Virus record (IMG/VR): IMGVR_UViG_2623620505_000005
Reading direction: 5' to 3' (one strand)
DNA from: a virus
Lineage: Duplodnaviria > Heunggongvirae > Uroviricota > Caudoviricetes
Length of the DNA stretch: 46,276 nucleotides
This document shows, piece after piece, positions 1-44,219 of this stretch. The stretch's first letter is position 1. Each line of letters starts with the position of its first letter. The translations under genes were made by a program, and so were the position numbers. The notes below the pieces were generated by a model that was given only the letters and a program-made list of their open reading frames with translations, did not search any database and was not told the origin of the DNA.

Positions 1-90
1 TTGCCTCCCCCCCGTTGATGGGTAAAATAGCCGCAATTTTTCGTTTTCAACAAGCGCGGCGCGATGCCGCTTACTCAAGAAGAAAGAATT

Positions 91-165
91 ATGACGTTGT
101 CTCCTTATTTGCAAGAGGTGGCGAAGCGCCGCACTTTTGCCATTATTTCTCACCCCAATAATTAA
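91..165 (+). pseudogene. prfC: 5' fragment of prfC (peptide chain release factor 3), truncated at the prophage junction
   Basis: Translates [22 protein letters not shown], which matches my recollection of the E. coli PrfC N-terminus, then diverges (NN-stop) at about position 157. AT-rich phage DNA follows. Confidence 0.6.
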
Positions 166-319
166 GTCTAAATTAAAGCTCTTTTACTTTTTCAAAGTCC
201 TTTCAGTTAATTGATGTTTGGTTTTATAAGTCATTTGAATACAGTTAGTTATGTGGCTTCTTTAATTGAAAATTCTTTCATGTAACTTTAAATCGATCAG
301 GTTGCTTTCATCAAAAATC

Positions 320-376
320 TGTACATATGTTTGTACATAATGTACAAAGCAGCAGAGGTGTTTTGCGATTTGTACA
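320..376. promoter_or_regulatory. Cluster of four TGTACA palindromes directly upstream of int (candidate int promoter/operator or arm-type sites)
   Basis: TGTACA at 320-325, 332-337, 341-346 and 371-376, ending 10 bp before the int ATG at 386. Confidence 0.4.
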
Positions 377-385
377 AGGTGAGTA

Positions 386-1624
386 ATGGCGCTGTCTGAT
401 GCGTGGTTGCGTTCAGTCGTTGGAAAGGAACGTGATAAGGTTTTGGTTAAATCCGATCGTGATGGTCTGTCTGTCAGAGTATCACCGAAAGGTCGCGTAG
501 TGTTCCAATATCGTTATCAATGGGCAGGGAAAGGTGAGCGCCTTGATATCGGAACTTACCCGGCAACTGGATTAAAAGAGGCCAGAGAAGAAGTTATCCG
601 TCTCCGTGGTGAACTCGAGTCAAACCGCAATCCACGATTAGTCAAGCAGGCTGAAAAACGAAAAGCTACTGAAGCCATGACGGTAGAGTCTGTGATCCGT
701 GCCTGGTATGAAGCATATTGTGTAAAAAATAAAAAAGGTTCTGAACAGATACTCCGCTCGTTTGAGCTGCACCTGTTCTCTAAAATCGGGAATATCCCTC
801 ACGATGCAGCTACATTGCATGATTGGTTAGAAGTCCTAGAGCCTCTTAGCACCAAGACTCCAGCAATAGTAGACCGATTGCTAATTAACGCAAAGCAGGC
901 TCATGTCTGGGCGTATAAGAGAAAGCTCATTGAAACTCGCCCACTGTCGGATATCACGGGTAAAGATATGGATATCCGTAAAGGTCAGAAAAAACGGTTT
1001 CTGACACATGATGAAATTAGCATCCTTTATGCTGCGATCGATGGTTCTCGAATGGTTCCTAAATACCGAGCCTTCATTAAACTATTGCTGCATTTTGGTT
1101 GCCGTAGTTCAGAGCTAATTACTGCTAGGGTGGATGATTTTGATTTCATAAATAAGGTATGGACTGTACCACCAGAACGACATAAGACTGGGGACATAAC
1201 AGGCGAACCGCTAAAGCGGCCCATTATTGAACCGGTTGAAGAGCTTATAAAATACGTTATCTCTATGAACAACGGTTCCGATATGCTTTTTACTAAGGAA
1301 GGAAGCAGGGAGCCAGTTGGTCGGACATCATTGCAGTCGCTGCCTTACAATTTAATGCAGTTCGCATGGCGACGTTTGGGGTATCAATTTCCTCATTGGT
1401 CTCTTCATGATTTGAGACGAACAGCACGAACAAACTTTTCTGATCTTACTGCGCCTCATATTGCTGAAATAATGCTCGGTCATAAACTGCCAGGGGTATG
1501 GCAAGTTTATGATAAGAGCGATTATCTAGAAGAACAGCGTAAAGCCTATCAGGCATGGTGGGATAGGGTTGATTCGATTCTTACTTACACTAATTTAGGT
1601 TCCAACAGACAGCCTATTGAATAA
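386..1624 (+). CDS. int: Tyrosine site-specific integrase (P4-like)
   Basis: 412 aa; conserved catalytic-region motifs read in the translation (R in FGCRSSEL, HDLRRTARTN, Tyr in VYDKSDYLEE); sits at the prophage junction. Confidence 0.9.
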   Translation: MALSDAWLRSVVGKERDKVLVKSDRDGLSVRVSPKGRVVFQYRYQWAGKGERLDIGTYPATGLKEAREEVIRLRGELESNRNPRLVKQAEKRKATEAMTVESVIRAWYEAYCVKNKKGSEQILRSFELHLFSKIGNIPHDAATLHDWLEVLEPLSTKTPAIVDRLLINAKQAHVWAYKRKLIETRPLSDITGKDMDIRKGQKKRFLTHDEISILYAAIDGSRMVPKYRAFIKLLLHFGCRSSELITARVDDFDFINKVWTVPPERHKTGDITGEPLKRPIIEPVEELIKYVISMNNGSDMLFTKEGSREPVGRTSLQSLPYNLMQFAWRRLGYQFPHWSLHDLRRTARTNFSDLTAPHIAEIMLGHKLPGVWQVYDKSDYLEEQRKAYQAWWDRVDSILTYTNLGSNRQPIE

Positions 1625-1738
1625 TGAATAGACATACAGAGTAAGAAAATAGTAATGATTCTTGGATTATAATTAACTGATTGCTGATATTTCGATTTGC
1701 CGATTTATGAAGAGACGGTCATTATACTTATAAAAACA

Positions 1739-1770
1739 CCACTCCTTATCCTTACAGAAATAAGGAGTGG
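1739..1770 (-). terminator. Rho-independent terminator for the leftward avcD-like transcript
   Basis: 11-bp perfect inverted repeat CCACTCCTTAT / ATAAGGAGTGG with a 10-nt loop, 7 bp past the stop codon of the 1777..3372 gene; the minus-strand transcript continues UGUUUUUA. Confidence 0.5.
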
Positions 1771-1776
1771 AAACAG

Positions 1777-3372
1777 TTATGGCTGAGACTCTGGTTTAGC
1801 AATCTCGTTTATAAATTTCTTAGCTACAACAGTCTCATACTTTCTATAATCATCAAGATATTGAACATCTATATGATTTTTGTAGCGAGCATTAAATTTA
1901 TTTGCAGCCCCTGTTTTATCATCTTTACGTTCATCCGTTGGTCTGAAAAATTTATGGTAGCGGCGGGGTGATACCCCCTCAAAATCACAAAATATTACTT
2001 TGGAAGATTCTTCGTTCTTTGTTATTGCATCATTATGCAGATCAAGAGCAAGGCTTTTATCAAATGGCTCTATATATACTACTTTTTTTATTCCAGATGC
2101 GACAATATGCCTTGCACAGTTGTGGCAGGGATAGGTTGTCGTAAAAAGAATTTTATCTTTAGTATCGCCGTTTTGTTTTCTAGCCATTGATGTAATGACG
2201 TCCATTTCAGCATGAATTGATCTGGAGTACTCCATTACACTTGATATTTTGCTGTCTTTGTAAATGCCTTCTGCAATATTATCTAATTTGTTTAGAAGTC
2301 GTGTTATATTAATATCGGCAACAGTTTGTCCTGCGGAAATACCTAATACACTTCTTACTTCGGTTGATAATATGCTTTTTATACGGTCTTTAATTTTTAG
2401 CTTGTTTGCATCATTATAACACTTACCACTTTTGTGAACGCATCGATGATCGTTATCAAAATCATCACTGCTATACAACCCGCCACCAGCTTTAGGTACG
2501 TCGTTCTTACCCACGGCAAGCAAATTCCCTTCATCATCAAACAGTGCAGCCCCTACTTGACGTGATAAACAAGCTGATTGTAATGATGTTGAAAAGGCAG
2601 CATACATACCTTTCTCGTTAAAAGTTGGTGTTAAACCATTTTTGCCATGAATAAGACCGAAAAACCGATCAATCTTCTTCTTTAATTCACTTTTTTGGCT
2701 GAAGTTATTTTTAATAAAAAAATCTGAATCAAGAATGGTTTCCCCGGTTCTTTGTCCATACGGATCAGAGGATTTATTATCAATATTGATAATTAAATGA
2801 AGGTCGTCCTTTGCCGATTCGTCAGCAATGAGATTCGGAATTCGGTAATCTAAATCGCGCAAAACTCCTAACAAATAGAAATTATGCTGATATATAACTC
2901 TGAATAACTCTATTTCTTCCGGCCTTTTGAATTGATCAATGATGAAGACAGTACCTTTATATTCATCATTATTATAATCAATATTCTTTTTCGCTGCTGC
3001 GATTGCTGCAATAGCAGCTTCTGCAAGCAACTCATTTTTTTCGTAATGTTTACGAAGTTTATTGGCAATATCCTGGAGTTTTAAATGTCTATTAACTTGT
3101 GTGCTTTCGGATACCTTCAGTGCTGCGGGCTCAAAATATAATGGGTCTTCCATAAGCGCACTTATGCGGATGTGTACAACATTATACCCCCATTCTTTGG
3201 ATATCTCTTCGATAATTTTGTTTATCGTTCTCATGCCACATCCAACATATCCACACAATCCAAGATAAATATCTTTTGATTGTCGTGAATTCACAATCTC
3301 AAGTGATGATGCCGATGTTGAGCCTTTTTTTTCATTCAGCTTTTGTGGAGTTTTTTTTGCTGCTTCAGCCAT
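1777..3372 (-). CDS. avcD: P-loop NTPase / deoxycytidylate-deaminase fusion protein, AvcD/DCD-like anti-phage dCTP deaminase
   Basis: 531 aa. C-terminal half has the zinc-deaminase signature (SACLSRQVGAAL ... HAEMDVI ... PCHNCARHIVASGIKKVVY); N-terminus has a glycine-rich P-loop-like segment (GLCGYVGCGMRT). Size and architecture match the AvcD/DCD family; AT-rich relative to the phage backbone. Confidence 0.7.
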   Translation of the reverse strand: MAEAAKKTPQKLNEKKGSTSASSLEIVNSRQSKDIYLGLCGYVGCGMRTINKIIEEISKEWGYNVVHIRISALMEDPLYFEPAALKVSESTQVNRHLKLQDIANKLRKHYEKNELLAEAAIAAIAAAKKNIDYNNDEYKGTVFIIDQFKRPEEIELFRVIYQHNFYLLGVLRDLDYRIPNLIADESAKDDLHLIINIDNKSSDPYGQRTGETILDSDFFIKNNFSQKSELKKKIDRFFGLIHGKNGLTPTFNEKGMYAAFSTSLQSACLSRQVGAALFDDEGNLLAVGKNDVPKAGGGLYSSDDFDNDHRCVHKSGKCYNDANKLKIKDRIKSILSTEVRSVLGISAGQTVADINITRLLNKLDNIAEGIYKDSKISSVMEYSRSIHAEMDVITSMARKQNGDTKDKILFTTTYPCHNCARHIVASGIKKVVYIEPFDKSLALDLHNDAITKNEESSKVIFCDFEGVSPRRYHKFFRPTDERKDDKTGAANKFNARYKNHIDVQYLDDYRKYETVVAKKFINEIAKPESQP

Positions 3373-3382
3373 TGCTAATTAC

Positions 3383-3568
3383 CTAGTCGAAAACTATATC
3401 AGTATTTATTATTTCAAAAAATGCATCAAGAATTTCTTTATTTTTCTTTTTACTTTCAAATGAAATGACATTATCTTGATTAAATGTTGTTAATTCAATG
3501 CAGATAGAATCAACCTGATCATTGGCGGCGATGCTCGATTCTATTTCATTAAATGCTATTACATTCAT
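3383..3568 (-). CDS. Small ORF (61 aa) co-oriented immediately upstream of the avcD-like gene; may be non-coding and mark an AvcI-like antitoxin sRNA locus
   Basis: ORF ends 10 bp before the avcD-like start codon; no recognisable domain. AvcD systems are known to carry their sRNA antitoxin directly 5' of avcD. Confidence 0.25.
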   Translation of the reverse strand: MNVIAFNEIESSIAANDQVDSICIELTTFNQDNVISFESKKKNKEILDAFFEIINTDIVFD

Positions 3569-3665
3569 TTATCTTATCCAAACATAATAAAAAACCATAT
3601 GGCCTTTAGTGTACAACAAAACCATACTCTTTCCCCTCATTTTAGAGGGGGAAGTGTGGTCCACA

Positions 3666-3932
3666 TCATGTTTTTTCCCACCCATGAAAATGTTCACCTA
3701 GGCTGGTGAGGCATTTTATGTACATCAACTCTTTGAGTTGAATCATTATTTTAGTATTTTTTCTATCATTGTGTAAATGTCTTCGTTTCAATACATCATG
3801 CTTGGGGAGCGGTCCCCGTTTCCTGATAATTAATGCTTGTGGATAGCAACGTCCGTGCCTGTATCGCTCAGACAGACGCTTACCGTGCCATAGACGTGTC
3901 TGTTCACATACGTCATTCAATAACTCCTGCAA
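3666..3932 (-). CDS. Hypothetical protein (Arg/His-rich), overlaps the excisionase-like gene in another frame
   Basis: 88-aa ORF with no recognisable domain; its start overlaps the 3' end of the 3913..4107 ORF. Confidence 0.3.
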   Translation of the reverse strand: MQELLNDVCEQTRLWHGKRLSERYRHGRCYPQALIIRKRGPLPKHDVLKRRHLHNDRKNTKIMIQLKELMYIKCLTSLGEHFHGWEKT

Positions 3933-4107
3933 ACCTGTAAATCTTGCGTGAAGCCCATTTATTTGGGCATGATTTAATATCAGGATCTGGAAAATCAGGC
4001 CTGTACTTCTGGCCAGTTCTCCGGTTTACGCTGTTCCAGCGAAGAACTGTCGATACTGAAACGCCACAGAAGTCGGCGACTTGTTTAGTTGTCATTAAGT
4101 TGTTCAT
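3913..4107 (-). CDS. Excisionase-like helix-turn-helix DNA-binding protein
   Basis: 64 aa; N-terminal TTKQVADFCGVSVSTVLRW is a typical excisionase/MerR-type HTH; located in the int-proximal early-left operon. Confidence 0.5.
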   Translation of the reverse strand: MNNLMTTKQVADFCGVSVSTVLRWNSVNRRTGQKYRPDFPDPDIKSCPNKWASRKIYRFAGVIE

Positions 4108-4727
4108 TACTTCACCTCCTGCGGCGGTTCCGGTAGCGGCATCCAGTGGGTTACTTTCGATGCCGGTTCTTCTCCATTGTCAGTAACTGCCCACCATTTG
4201 TTTCTCGAACAATCATAATACCCTTCGAAGGTATCGCACTCAGTCCAGCCGTAAGACTTACCCCAACACCAAACATACTGTTTATCGTTCGGCATTCGCT
4301 CACTACAGCTTATCCAACCATCCGGAGTTACCGGAGAGTTGCCCGACAGCTTGTTCAACTTGTAAGTCTGGCTTACAGGTTTGGCACCATGAAGCATGGT
4401 GGCGCGGCAGGCGTTCCAGCCTTCATCAAAACCGACTATGCCATTATTTAAAGACGGACGAGCATCTGGCACCACCAGTACTGGCTTGGCTATATATAGC
4501 GGCTGAACATACCAGCCCTTTGATAACCAACTGTCAGCAATGTTTTTGCTCCTGGTTATTGCCGGAATACCTAAGCCATTGTCTGAATGCAGCCATGCCA
4601 CCGGCTCCTCTTCTAGCGATGCCAGAGCAATTTCATAAGCACGGCGCTCAATATCGTCTCGAACCTCTAGGCTGCTGATTCGTTCTTTGATTTCTTTAAT
4701 CAGTTCTTTATTGGTAAATGTGGTCAT
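4107..4727 (-). CDS. DUF551 domain phage protein
   Basis: 206 aa; C-terminal Trp-rich segment ending THWMPLPEPP is typical of DUF551 proteins of lambdoid early-left regions. Confidence 0.65.
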   Translation of the reverse strand: MTTFTNKELIKEIKERISSLEVRDDIERRAYEIALASLEEEPVAWLHSDNGLGIPAITRSKNIADSWLSKGWYVQPLYIAKPVLVVPDARPSLNNGIVGFDEGWNACRATMLHGAKPVSQTYKLNKLSGNSPVTPDGWISCSERMPNDKQYVWCWGKSYGWTECDTFEGYYDCSRNKWWAVTDNGEEPASKVTHWMPLPEPPQEVK

Positions 4728-5089
4728 TATGCTCCAGCCTCCGGCGCTTTGGGTATTACTGCCCAGTGAGTGATATTGAAGTTTTCAAGGTCCCCGACCT
4801 GAAATGTCCACTGCCATTCTCCGGTTTCTTTTTGTCCCCAGGTGTACCAGAGAGAACGCCAGCCAATCAGCCAGCCTTCTCCATTAGCATCAAATAACAG
4901 AACACTTTCATTTGCTGGTGGCAGTTCAGCTGACACTGGTATTATTTTGTTTTCCAGTGCCGCACATTTAGCTTCAAGCGCGTCGAATTTACGTACCAGG
5001 TACTCAGCATTTGTTTCGTTCACTTTCAGATCTCGCGGTACACATTTCCCGCGAAGAAACCCTTCCATTTCGAAAATATTCATGCGCAT
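4727..5089 (-). CDS. DUF551-like phage protein (YfdS-like)
   Basis: 120 aa; C-terminal THWAVIPKAPE resembles the DUF551 tail; start overlaps the upstream gene's stop. Confidence 0.55.
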   Translation of the reverse strand: MRMNIFEMEGFLRGKCVPRDLKVNETNAEYLVRKFDALEAKCAALENKIIPVSAELPPANESVLLFDANGEGWLIGWRSLWYTWGQKETGEWQWTFQVGDLENFNITHWAVIPKAPEAGA

Positions 5090-5616
5090 TTGCGTAACTC
5101 CGATAAATCGTTAAAACGTTCCATAAACATCCCGTAGGCATGACCCGGTGCCAGTGGAATCACGTTGAACATCTCTGTTGCCCGGATGCCTTCCAGTACA
5201 GGCCAGAAAGAGCCATCATCAAGCCCGAGATCGCGGCGTTCGGTTGCCAGCATGATGAGATCGGCATATTTCACGGGCGTACTCATAACTGGGGGTAACC
5301 CGTATTTCTCACGGATTACGGCGTCTATTTTTTCTTCCATCCGTTTATAGTCAGGAAGAAGTCGTTTCAGTGGTGCGGGGATGTCCTGGCAATATGCTTC
5401 TGTTGCATCATGCATTAACGCTTCAAAAGCAAATTCCTGCGGTACCAGCTGGCTGCAAAGCACCGCATGTTGGGCGACGCTGTAGAAGTGTGAAAGATGC
5501 CCTGCAAAGCGACAGATATTTGAAAGGGAAACCGCGATATCGTTAATAACGATGTCGTCTTTATTTATCTTGTCATAATAAAAATGCTTCCCGGAAAAAG
5601 TTTTAATAAATGACAT
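5080..5616 (-). CDS. HD-domain phosphohydrolase (YfdR-like 5'-deoxynucleotidase)
   Basis: HD motif in LMHDATEAYCQDIP. Start chosen at the ATG at 5614-5616 (MSFIKTF), which has a GGAGA Shine-Dalgarno 7 nt upstream; gives 178 aa. The track ORF extends further to 5679. Confidence 0.7.
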   Translation of the reverse strand: MSFIKTFSGKHFYYDKINKDDIVINDIAVSLSNICRFAGHLSHFYSVAQHAVLCSQLVPQEFAFEALMHDATEAYCQDIPAPLKRLLPDYKRMEEKIDAVIREKYGLPPVMSTPVKYADLIMLATERRDLGLDDGSFWPVLEGIRATEMFNVIPLAPGHAYGMFMERFNDLSELRKCA

Positions 5617-5744
5617 TTTGTTCTCCACGTTATGTGCGCTGCACCGCACTGAATTTTGGTAAAAAGAAGCCCTTACCATCCGGCGATTATTGAGTTAATT
5701 ACGTTTCCATAAATGCCCCCGCAGGGGCATTTGCAGTAATGAAA

Positions 5745-6569
5745 TCAGGCGGTGAAAGTACCAATAAAGGTTTCTACTTTGCTGTCTTTGAATTTCTCAA
5801 CAAGCAGATCACGAAATTCGTTAGCCATTTCTTCCTGCACCGCTTCCAGCTGAATAATGCGCAGAACCAGTACAGGACGATCGCCAGTGATAATGCTGAG
5901 ACGTAATTTAAACGGACGTTCTTTCAAGCTTTCAAACGGAACGCATTTAAATTCAAATGCCACTGGCATAATGTCTTTGGTCTTCGCTTCGACAGACTCC
6001 ATCAGGGAGCGTTTGCCGCTGAAGTCATTATCTTCAAAATCAGCGGTTTGGTTCGCTTCAATTGTGATTTTACGGATCGCCGCAGCCGCTTTGGTTGCCT
6101 GAATGGTGTCACCATTAGCATCAAAGCCCACAAGGTAGTCGGCCCAGTCTTCAATCCATTCTGCCAGTGACTTCTGGGAGTTACGCTCGCCATTAACAGA
6201 CAACAGAGCAGAGAACGGTGCTGTCTTTTTCAGTTTGAGAGTGGCAGTGTTATCTGCGTGACCTGGCTCATCAATAGTACCCAGGTTAAGCACACTGACG
6301 GCACGCATATTATCGGCATCGATAAAGCAGCGGGTGCCTTCATCTGCAAGATCTTTAGAATAACGGGTAAAGTCATCGATGCTGGCAGTGGAAAGCGCAC
6401 CACGGAAACGGAAACGATTTAAATTAAATTTTTCCAGATCATGAATGCGGAAATTCTCAGGCAATGCCACAGCATCGGCACCAATCTTACTGATGATTTC
6501 ATTAACACCCTGAGCAGAAATAAGGGCATGGATTTGATTAATTGCGGTTGCGTCTAAGTTATGAGACAT
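5745..6569 (-). CDS. YfdQ-like (DUF2303) phage protein
   Basis: 274 aa; length and position (next to an HD hydrolase and a 120-aa protein) match my recollection of the yfdP-yfdQ-yfdR-yfdS block of the E. coli CPS-53 prophage. Confidence 0.55.
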
Positions 6570-9314: not shown

Positions 9315-10462
9315 ACAGTTTAACGGCAAATAACCGTTTGTCGCAACAGCTGGTGGTCAGTGTCGCTGAACACCGGTTGTTATGGCATGAATGCAGATTA
9401 CCAAATCACCTGGCTGTAAGTAACCACAGAGAACTTTACCTGACTGTGGGGGGCGAGTTGTGCAGGAACTTAACCGCTGGTTTCGTGACGGAAGAGGACT
9501 TTATGTTCATGTTATTCGTTGGGAGCCAGAAACACAGCGCGTTATCTATCTTCGCAAAGACTACCCGCATGAGTGCTTTAGTCCTTTGTGGAAATTCAGG
9601 CGTGATTTTGTTGAGTGTGAAGGACCACCAGCACATTGATTCTGCCATTCCGGGACGTTACACTGTTCAGGCACCTTATAAAACGGGTGCCGGGCGTGGA
9701 AACCCGGAATTCACCAAAGCGCACAACCGCGCTCTTGCGGTTTTTTTGTGTCATGAGCAGCATTACGCCCAAATTATGGTGGGGCGTGCAGGGCCAACTT
9801 CGGTTGGGCCGGGTTCTTTGGTGACCGGTATTTCCACCCCTGTACGTCTCACCACCAATAAGGTCGTGGAAAGCCTTGGTGGTGAGTTATTAAAAATCAC
9901 CAAAGAGGCTGCCATCATGGCTACGATCCCAACCCTCACTCAACCTGAAATTGCCATCGTTGATGGTCAGGCTGTTACTTCATCCTTGGCTGTTGCCAAC
10001 TTCTTCTCCAAACGTCATGACGATGTACTGAAAAAGATCCGCACGCTTGAATGCTCAGCATCATTCACTGCCCGCAATTTTTCGGTGAGTGATTACACTG
10101 ATTGCACAGGTCGCAAACTTCCTTGCTACCAAATCACACGCGACGGTTTTGCGTTTCTTGCTATGGGTTTCACGGGTAAACGTGCTGCCCAGTTCAAGGA
10201 GGCATACATCAATGCCTTTAACCAGATGGAGAAACAGCTTTCAAAGCCCTCTGTACCGAGCGACGTTGCACATAACGCCAGCGTTCTCTGTTCCTACATT
10301 TCATCAATTCATCAGGTCTGGCTGCAGCAGCTTTATCCTATGTTGGCAAAAGCCGAATCTCCGCTGGCTGTTAGCTTGTATGACTATATTAATGATGCTT
10401 CGGCACTGGCCTGCCTCATAAATTTGTCGCTGAACCCTTCAGAGGTATGGGGGCGCAAATGA
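9311..10462 (+). CDS. Rha-family phage regulatory protein with a long N-terminal extension
   Basis: The C-terminal 181 aa (from the ATG at 9917, which has an AAGAGG ribosome-binding site) resemble Rha regulatory proteins; the upstream 202 codons are in frame with no stop and no recognised domain. Confidence 0.55.
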   Translation: MNSLTANNRLSQQLVVSVAEHRLLWHECRLPNHLAVSNHRELYLTVGGELCRNLTAGFVTEEDFMFMLFVGSQKHSALSIFAKTTRMSALVLCGNSGVILLSVKDHQHIDSAIPGRYTVQAPYKTGAGRGNPEFTKAHNRALAVFLCHEQHYAQIMVGRAGPTSVGPGSLVTGISTPVRLTTNKVVESLGGELLKITKEAAIMATIPTLTQPEIAIVDGQAVTSSLAVANFFSKRHDDVLKKIRTLECSASFTARNFSVSDYTDCTGRKLPCYQITRDGFAFLAMGFTGKRAAQFKEAYINAFNQMEKQLSKPSVPSDVAHNASVLCSYISSIHQVWLQQLYPMLAKAESPLAVSLYDYINDASALACLINLSLNPSEVWGRK

Positions 10463-43856: not shown

Positions 43857-44219
43857 ATGCTCTTTGACTTGGCTTCCGGGGACGCACTATTTATCTCTGA
43901 ACCAGGCCCATTAGCGGAAAATGTCACCTGGTTGTCGCCGGAAGGGGAATATCAGAAGTGGAACGGTACAGCCTGGGTGAAAGATGCAGAAGCAGAAAAA
44001 CTATTCCGGATCCGGGAGGCGGAAGAAACAAAAAACAGCCTGATGCAGGTAGCCAGTGAGCATATAGCGCCGCTTCAGGATGCTGTAGATCTGGAGATCG
44101 CAACGGAGGAAGAAAATTCGTTGCTGGAAGCCTGGAAAAAGTATCGGGTGTTGCTGAACCGTGTTGATACATCAACTGCACCTGATATTGAGTGGCCGGA
44201 AGAACCAGACACAATGTAA
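43857..44219 (+). CDS. tfa: Tail fibre assembly protein Tfa, lambda-type, N-terminally truncated remnant
   Basis: 120 aa corresponding to roughly residues 75-194 of lambda Tfa (GDALFISE ... [20 protein letters not shown]); the N-terminal ~74 residues are missing. Confidence 0.6.

Follow-up and report, generated by a model that had tools for sequence, protein, structure and literature searches.

An AvcID-type nucleotide-depletion cassette in an Escherichia coli prophage and the case for a protein-coding AvcI partner

AvcID systems are widely cited as type III toxin–antitoxin (TA) defences that are triggered when a non-coding RNA decays after phage-induced shut-off of transcription. They are grouped with ToxIN, TenpIN and CptIN, since the RNA directly inhibits the protein toxin and is lost once transcription stops. 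Whether this small partner, AvcI, is indeed non-coding is the question raised by a cassette in the Caudoviricetes record IMGVR_UViG_2623620505_000005, a stretch of 46,276 nucleotides (the window) that matches the E. coli 1303 chromosome (NZ_CP009166) with 100% identity, where the prophage is integrated beside yjjG. In this cassette, the deaminase gene avcD is preceded by a small locus in the same orientation, and a preliminary description had proposed that this locus could encode an RNA rather than a protein. As an either/or, the proposal fails; frame-specific purifying selection, translation signals and phylum-spanning peptide motifs all speak for a translated open reading frame (ORF), and the RNA of that ORF has no excess stability. 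On comparative sequence evidence, the small locus is a conserved protein-coding gene, the Vibrio loci included, which contradicts the description of AvcI as non-coding. Since this applies to the archetypal Vibrio loci too, it is the definition of the family, not the membership of the window locus, that comes into question. The window locus itself is ordinary, an annotated defence gene in the cargo slot of a prophage; the interest lies in what follows for the AvcID family.

The toxin half of the cassette is readily placed. Its 531-aa product is an AvcD-type anti-phage dCTP deaminase, an identification that is correct but already known, as the RefSeq label is ‘anti-phage dCTP deaminase’; the corresponding PHROGs entry, phrog_9198, is of ‘unknown function’. 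The protein matches the NCBIfam equivalog NF041025 over its full length with 463.3 bits (cutoff 400), the PADLOC dCTPase model PDLC02373 with E=1.4e-163 and Pfam PF00383 with 5e-15, and it is 62% identical to AvcD from plasmid p58 of enterotoxigenic E. coli (ETEC) H10407, 45% to that of V. cholerae and 44% to that of V. parahaemolyticus. The deaminase motifs H387-A-E389, P415-C-H-N-C419 and V431-V-Y-I-E-P436 are invariant or nearly so in 80 homologues. In the same alignment, which includes both Vibrio proteins, no variation is seen at H387, E389, C416 and C419, the positions for zinc binding and catalysis, at D146/Q147 of the N-domain or in the glycine-rich loop of its P-loop/Walker-A-like motif, G38-L-C-G-Y-V-G-C-G-M-R-T50. 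An AlphaFold2 model (predicted local distance difference test, pLDDT, 85; predicted template-modelling score, pTM, 0.82) was compared with known structures by Foldseek; the C-domain resembles dCMP deaminases from T4, human, S. mutans and a cyanophage (E about 1e-8 for the first three), and the N-domain adenylate, dephospho-CoA and UMP-CMP kinases. A sequence search of the PDB returned no solved AvcD structure, the matches being dCMP deaminases only. Profile matches, structure comparison and zinc-ligand conservation thus all bear out the AvcD/DCD-like deaminase of the preliminary description. The housekeeping Dcd of E. coli has a different fold and is not a relevant comparison for AvcD.

Upstream of avcD, a 61-aa ORF ending 10 bp before the deaminase start had been pointed out, and it is present as described. 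Its stop codon TAG occupies 3385-3383 and the avcD ATG 3372-3370; the succession of stop, 10-nt gap and start, GAC TAG GTAATTAGCA ATG, is kept in all eight members of the window's clade, and the p58 junction in ETEC reads GAT TAG GAAGCAGAGTAA ATG. The overlap between this stop codon and the avcD Shine–Dalgarno sequence suggests that translation of the two genes is coupled. A scan for terminator-like sites found none between the small ORF and avcD. In about 25 distinct Enterobacterales sequences, on various mobile elements, the ORF is held at 61 aa and always ends 10 nt before avcD; it also matches phrog_9966 (‘unknown function’) over its full length with E=2e-43. Because of this constancy and this match, it represents more than a chance ORF. 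In other genomes it is called ‘hypothetical protein’ (for example, WP_040091656.1 in GB089), and the RefSeq/PGAP annotation of E. coli 1303 misses it together with the 64-aa excisionase further upstream.

The AvcI described in the literature provides the point of comparison. Under the name DifV, it was reported to lie immediately 5′ of avcD, co-oriented and co-transcribed, with a 174-nt ORF as the minimal active element (10.1101/2021.03.31.437871). In the same study, the toxins of V. parahaemolyticus, P. mirabilis and ETEC H10407 were each neutralised by the small hypothetical ORF located 5′ of the toxin gene, and inhibition was cognate-specific; the authors could see no similarity in sequence between the four small ORFs. 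The 174-nt minimal element of V. cholerae is exactly a 56-codon ORF, MVIDYNEKKSKNDVKHLIDKDQSNKTKVIQFTEVKKKSASVQATRALLEQAKQLGW, with its stop codon. The closest experimentally tested relative of the window cassette is the ETEC H10407 p58 system (NC_017723), for which toxicity, neutralisation, dC depletion and phage defence were tested by Hsueh et al. Its small ORF, also of 61 aa, is MSNQLTVIDGYAEREATNDNNAENLNISYICGNVVDFFVNFQEKETINSFDKILKKEIILD, and belongs to the same subfamily as that of the window, MNVIAFNEIESSIAANDQVDSICIELTTFNQDNVISFESKKKNKEILDAFFEIINTDIVFD; the two align through ATND, NV..F and a C-terminal KIL..EIIxD directly before the stop, and in both the TAG lies inside the avcD Shine–Dalgarno sequence. 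They differ in that the peptides are only about 22-25% identical, and in that p58 is a 5.8-kb mobilisable plasmid with a strong Shine–Dalgarno sequence (AGGAG), compared with a prophage and a weak one in the window. From the paper's description, we infer that the annotated hypothetical ORF on p58 is the tested ‘AvcI’. Neither WP_096882215.1 (ETEC) nor WP_108717204.1 (P. mirabilis AR_379) could be found in the cluster listings, and the ETEC locus was located via the plasmid; a P. mirabilis genome carries, beside AvcD, a 61-aa ORF that is 79% identical to that of the window. The earlier assignment of the upstream locus as the AvcI counterpart is hence supported by an ORF that is homologous to the ETEC p58 small ORF and, more distantly, to the Vibrio AvcI ORFs.

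The breadth of the family was examined in the avcD neighbourhoods of 80 species-representative genomes and in loci fetched otherwise, about 90 related loci in all. Most of the closer avcD relatives have a same-strand ORF of 50-80 aa just upstream of avcD. Family members share an N-terminal motif M-[IV]-[IV]-x-F, a central s-N-V-[IV]-x-F and a C-terminal amphipathic helix that ends in L-x-W directly before the stop; peptides of the window clade end in I-x-F-D instead. Where avcD clades have no upstream ORF, an ORF with family motifs, its N-terminal motif being QLxLxF, is found just downstream. This placement occurs in Betaproteobacteria, Desulfobacteria, Bacteroidota, Bacillota and a Peregrinibacteria metagenome-assembled genome (L074 4536-4730, L084 4508-4708, L036 4621-4818, L045 4630-4860 and nine more loci), and in two loci, from Peregrinibacteria and Bacillota, the end of avcD, stop codon included, and the downstream ORF overlap, by 4 and 17 nt, respectively. 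Among 5164 six-frame ORFs of at least 30 aa from 85 loci, the family hidden Markov model (HMM) matched 36 upstream-adjacent and 13 downstream-adjacent ORFs and none elsewhere (E<=0.01); many of these matches are training sequences, and about 17 are not. An exhaustive profile search of 1.84 billion proteins gave seven matches at E<=1e-3, the peptide being too short for database-wide significance, and a k-mer-seeded profile search with the small peptide added only five distant members.

Against the window-clade small ORF, the family HMM scores E=0.037, and hhalign links the window clade to the Vibrio-type family with P=3.8e-5 and a probability of 71% over the NVIxF-basic region. Bridging sequences between the subfamilies are provided by a Citrobacter/Dickeya ORF and by an ORF on a 4.6-kb plasmid (L008, L091), the latter with ...HGNVYDLELELLRRKREEAIKRIIEDSKSLKW. 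Within the window ORF, there is a 17-nt imperfect direct repeat (3476-3492 and 3545-3561) with the peptide motifs I-A-F-N-E and T-T-F-N-Q; taken with the central NVISF, it suggests internal duplication of a short strand motif. Conserved residues of the window peptide include N33, V34 and F37 of NVISF and, at the C-terminus, F60 and D61. One 941-aa protein (P0220) has nine stretches that match the small-peptide profile (E=2e-11), probably by virtue of a low-complexity or repetitive sequence.

The case for translation rests first on the pattern of substitution. The ratio of non-synonymous to synonymous differences (pN/pS), obtained from Nei–Gojobori counts, is 0.34 in the ORF frame for seven phylogenetically independent pairs (p=1.9e-16), compared with 1.06 and 2.35 in the other two frames, and all seven pairs are individually significant in the ORF frame. 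For three independent pairs in the window clade, the ratio is 0.30 (p=6.8e-5; other frames 0.76 and 1.01). The Vibrio loci behave in the same way: V. cholerae compared with harveyi-group Vibrio gives 0.34 (p=2e-4; other frames 0.92 and 1.19), two harveyi-group loci give 0.13 (p=1.4e-6; other frames 1.77 and 1.10), and Vibrio pairs overall range from 0.13 to 0.40. Translation signals point in the same direction. Of 42 small-ORF starts, 30 have a Shine–Dalgarno core 4-mer at -17 to -4, whereas the figure for all ATGs of these loci is 11.3% (p=1e-19). Conserved residues are written with varied codons, five for the Leu at -3 and four for the Ala at -6, and the stop that follows the invariant Trp codon TGG is TAA in 24 loci, TAG in 11 and TGA in three. 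The peptide motifs are kept in loci that range from 34% to 65% GC.

The RNA of the ORF shows no excess folding stability. Measured against dinucleotide shuffles, the mean folding z of small-ORF RNAs is -0.10 (n=31), and avcD coding controls give the same result. In the window, the ORF alone has z=-1.0, and leader and ORF together z=-3.2. RNAalifold on the eight clade sequences, a set of low diversity, gave a covariation term of -0.59 kcal/mol with double changes in 4 of 91 pairs, and hence no real support for a conserved fold. For the upstream region, Rfam gave no family and only chance-level matches, both at E<=10 for positions 1-6000 and at gathering thresholds for the whole window, and no ToxI-type tandem repeats were found in 3300-3950.

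The leader upstream of the small ORF (about 3700-3569) is also conserved at the nucleotide level among the eight clade members, its conserved blocks including ATGATGTGGACCACACTT, the CCCCTC/GAGGGG hairpin and TTGTACACTAAA. Its mean pairwise difference is 0.173, similar to the 0.151 at the third codon positions of the ORF (Enterobacterales), and its best-conserved stretch is the last 27 nt before the ATG, with 0.095. The preliminary description had placed an 8-bp hairpin here, as part of the AvcI-equivalent segment. A hairpin is indeed present, with six perfect pairs (3650-3645 with 3638-3633) and not eight, although it can be extended to 9/10 pairs; it lies 63-84 nt upstream of the small ORF, in the 5′ leader and thus outside the AvcI-equivalent segment. 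It is kept in the eight clade members, where its pairs are mostly unchanged or altered on one side only. Because the leader is conserved, leader and ORF together fold with z=-3.2 and synonymous variation in the ORF is suppressed (see below), the window-clade transcript probably carries functional RNA elements on top of its coding information.

Published work on the Vibrio system speaks for an active RNA. V. cholerae AvcI stays active when its start codon is replaced by a stop or its ribosome-binding site (RBS) is left out (10.1101/2021.03.31.437871), AvcD is activated by rifampicin and not by spectinomycin, and an AvcI RNA–AvcD complex forms in vitro (PMC10511110). DifV-insensitive mutations known from V. 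cholerae are E123K, A126T, K201R, K511E and Q514R. A review of September 2025 still calls AvcI a non-coding RNA. The truncations that abolish AvcI activity remove 18 nt at the 5′ end or 4 nt at the 3′ end; both also delete peptide features, the N-terminal motif in one case and the terminal Trp and stop in the other, and so do not discriminate between RNA and peptide. The literature searched, which did not extend to the final 2022 journal version, contains no report of a conserved or coding AvcI peptide.

Since the published RNA inhibition stands alongside coding selection, the window locus is most likely dual-functional, acting through RNA and peptide. We hold with good confidence the overall reading of the module as a mobile AvcID nucleotide-depletion cassette with a dual-function RNA and peptide inhibitor locus. 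It would be ordered as promoter, leader, small gene, avcD and terminator, and carried as cargo in the int–xis slot of the prophage. By homology with the tested systems, the upstream 186-nt locus would act once AvcD has been synthesised, its product or products keeping the enzyme inactive. This inhibitor would be short-lived and would vanish when an infecting phage stops host transcription; freed AvcD would then convert dCTP and dCMP to dUTP and dUMP, and phage DNA replication would be starved of dC nucleotides. The mRNA of the small locus would correspond to the labile AvcD-binding inhibitor of the literature, and the peptide may have a second, conserved role, in the control or assembly of AvcD, which is not needed under overexpression. 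On balance, we also lean towards a broader proposition, namely that AvcI is a translated, conserved protein of 50-80 aa, located 5′ or 3′ of avcD in Proteobacteria, Bacteroidota, Bacillota, Chlamydiota and the candidate phyla radiation, that the peptide helps to control AvcD in a hybrid RNA-plus-protein or, in some clades, protein-antitoxin system, and that the window ORF is the enterobacterial prophage version.

Several observations weigh against this interpretation. Vibrio genetics show that neutralisation by overexpressed RNA does not need the peptide, and the ETEC and P. mirabilis neutralisation tests expressed the whole ORF, so that RNA and protein were not separated (10.1101/2021.03.31.437871). 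The link between window-clade and Vibrio-type peptides is moderate by sequence alone and leans on synteny and on the bridging sequences. The Shine–Dalgarno sequence of the window ORF is weak (GGATAAG), and an AlphaFold2 model of the 61-aa peptide alone has a pLDDT of 50 and is uninformative beyond secondary structure, namely a small, partly disordered chain with a C-terminal helix. Within the window clade, the Morganella–Proteus pair has a pN/pS of 1.17; nucleotide diversity by codon position is 0.098/0.091/0.151 in the ORF, a weaker contrast than the 0.064/0.038/0.23 of avcD; and synonymous variation in the small ORF is zero in codons 1-10 and low in codons 21-30, so that some constraint on the nucleotides is mixed with the coding signal. 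A further point comes from the E. coli AW1.7 dCTP deaminase, which was cloned with only about 85 nt of the sequence 5′ of the gene; the available part of the construct shows no small ORF there (Tal et al. 2022, 10.1101/2021.04.26.441389).

Among the alternatives, the one that survives best assigns the inhibition in the enterobacterial clade to the 61-aa protein itself, which would be an AvcD-binding antitoxin of type II character, its RNA being a messenger only. Such a system would be expected to show what the small ORF shows, that is, coding selection, a stop codon that overlaps the avcD Shine–Dalgarno sequence in a layout typical of coupled antitoxin–toxin operons, and, by prediction, a small peptide with some disorder and a helix at its C-terminus, as in many antitoxins; the cognate-specific inhibition in tests that did not separate RNA from protein also suits it. 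We nevertheless consider it unlikely. The homologous Vibrio locus functions without translation, and blocking translation leaves AvcD inactive; the suppressed synonymous variation in parts of the ORF and the strongly conserved leader indicate constraint at the RNA level too, and searches of the peptide against Pfam, NCBIfam and PADLOC detected no domain at all, neither a DNA-binding nor a known antitoxin domain.

A pure type III arrangement, in which the upstream locus is a non-coding RNA inhibitor only and the 61-codon ORF is incidental and untranslated, conflicts with more of the data. It requires purifying selection in the ORF frame to have arisen in every lineage tested, Vibrio included, on a sequence that is not translated; it leaves the Shine–Dalgarno enrichment and the varied codons for conserved residues without a role, and it does not account for peptide motifs conserved over so wide a range of GC content and across phyla. 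Gene order swaps by clade, with some downstream copies overlapping the avcD stop, and there is neither unusual folding of the ORF RNAs nor, in the window clade, more than a trace of covariation. The activity of the V. cholerae start-to-stop and RBS-less constructs, the selective response to rifampicin and the complex in vitro remain its best evidence, and current usage in the 2025 review and the absence of a PGAP call in E. coli 1303 are in keeping with it; on the whole, we judge it quite improbable. Less credible still is a third alternative, in which the small ORF would be a prophage ‘moron’ unrelated to AvcD, or would serve as a leader peptide of irrelevant amino-acid sequence that brings ribosomes to avcD. 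The 10-nt spacing and the stop/Shine–Dalgarno overlap would fit pure translational coupling. Yet coupling would keep the frame open without conserving amino acids, and pN/pS is 0.3; the motifs recur where the ORF is 20-130 nt upstream of avcD or downstream of it; and the ORF travels with avcD across unrelated mobile elements, with no family HMM match elsewhere.

Comparison with known systems places the dual-function reading more precisely. The AvcID (DcdV–DifV) systems of V. cholerae VSP-1 and V. parahaemolyticus share the two-domain toxin and its catalytic motifs; immediately 5′, and with no terminator in between, they too have a co-oriented small locus, about 170-190 nt long, whose peptide contains NV[IV]xF and a C-terminal helix. 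The window peptide, however, ends in I-V-F-D and the Vibrio peptides in L-G-W; the 10-nt gap with its stop/Shine–Dalgarno overlap contrasts with a gap of 77 nt in Vibrio; and the window module resides on an E. coli prophage, the Vibrio one on VSP-1. Vibrio AvcI has been published as non-coding, whereas coding selection is indicated here for the Vibrio and window loci alike. In contrast to ToxIN-type systems, tandem repeats are missing from the antitoxin region of the window, the toxin is a deaminase and not an endoribonuclease, and the ‘antitoxin’ region is a conserved ORF. Closer models would be the dual-function RNAs SgrS/SgrT and VcdRP, in which one short transcript combines an RNA activity with a translated small protein; these act by base-pairing with mRNAs, whereas the AvcI RNA is reported to bind a protein. 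The anti-phage dCTP deaminase of E. coli AW1.7 and U09 follows the same defence principle with the same kinase-plus-deaminase architecture; the AW1.7 protein belongs to a different subfamily with the N-terminus MAEQKFISELF... (10.1101/2021.04.26.441389). As far as the available part of the construct shows, the upstream small ORF is apparently not needed in the AW1.7 version, and a small partner of AvcD may therefore not be universal.

A coding AvcI goes against the accepted description of the family, and the underlying observation, although drawn from sequence comparison, is statistically strong. If the partner is a coding gene, both the classification of AvcID and the model of infection sensing (RNA decay as opposed to peptide turnover or translation status) need to be re-tested. 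A peptide component might explain why active AvcD reportedly could not be purified, for which an ‘unknown cofactor’ has been invoked. PADLOC and NCBIfam NF041025 treat the anti-phage dCTP deaminase as a single-gene system, as do PGAP and DefenseFinder; if the proposal is right, PGAP, PADLOC and DefenseFinder omit a component, given that the small ORF is often missed. AvcI would also become a candidate dual-function RNA in phage defence.

The features of the cassette and its immediate neighbours are collected in Table 1.

Table 1. Coordinates of the avcI–avcD cassette and flanking features in the window.
Feature	Position	Strand	Remarks
Tyrosine integrase	386-1624	+	Convergent with avcD; Pfam Phage_integrase, Arm-DNA-bind_3, Phage_int_M; RefSeq concurs
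Intrinsic terminator of the module	1739-1770	-	13-bp stem, 6-nt loop, T-run; starts 6 nt past the avcD stop
avcD	1777-3372	-	531 aa; anti-phage dCTP/dCMP deaminase; P-loop-kinase-like N-domain and zinc dCMP-deaminase C-domain
Spacer, 10 nt	3373-3382	-	Small-ORF TAG overlaps the conserved avcD Shine–Dalgarno-like TAGGT(A)
avcI-equivalent small gene	3383-3568	-	186 nt, 61 aa, MNVIAFNEIESSIAANDQVDSICIELTTFNQDNVISFESKKKNKEILDAFFEIINTDIVFD
Conserved 5′ leader	3569-3741	-	Includes hairpin CCCCTC-TAAAAT-GAGGGG, 3631-3652; nucleotide conservation in 8 clade members
Candidate sigma-70 promoter of the avcI–avcD operon	3748-3777	-	TTTACA-18-TAAAAT; 10/12 consensus matches; putative role
Excisionase, 64 aa	3913-4107	-	phrog_1553, E=7.7e-36; weak HTH_17 match

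The strong terminator at the end of the module is as first reported, and a scan of the region gave five terminator-like sites against 1.5 expected from shuffles. The AT-richness of the module is likewise confirmed, with 29-39% GC in 1650-3750 and 42-50% in the flanks. The hexamers of the candidate promoter are in register in five of the eight clade members, and transcription is predicted to start near 3741. An alternative promoter just upstream of the small ORF (TATTAT, 3589-3584) was rejected, as it has no acceptable -35 hexamer. An 88-aa ORF with a TTG start (3666-3932, minus strand) is probably spurious, as it has no PHROGs homologue and extends over leader and promoter sequence.

The unit formed by the small ORF, the 10-nt gap and avcD is present, complete or nearly so, in 49 of 5426 complete E. 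coli genomes. Elsewhere, it is found beside a P4-type primase in Klebsiella, in a P2 Ogr/Psu hotspot adjoining GAPS4 in Cronobacter, near a P2 portal gene in Enterobacter, and in another setting again in Proteus; no copy of the module was found in the phage collection. Sister prophages at the yjjG site hold other cargo between xis and int, a dGTP triphosphohydrolase-family gene in E. coli 631 (L097 6066-7292) and two hypothetical genes in E. coli TUM1886 (L096 6138-6982). Because of this exchange of contents, the int–xis slot is, as far as these relatives indicate, an exchangeable defence and cargo hotspot, in agreement with the accessory hotspot proposed earlier. The dGTPase family is the other known nucleotide-depletion defence.

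Elsewhere in the prophage, Rfam matches at gathering level comprise the Hfq-binding RNA isrK and the C4 antisense RNA (a P1/P7-type immunity RNA), at 9671-9747 and 9772-9859, both on the plus strand. Near the far end of the window, the RNA family IS009 is matched, also at gathering level, with 220 bits at 43978-44176 (plus strand).

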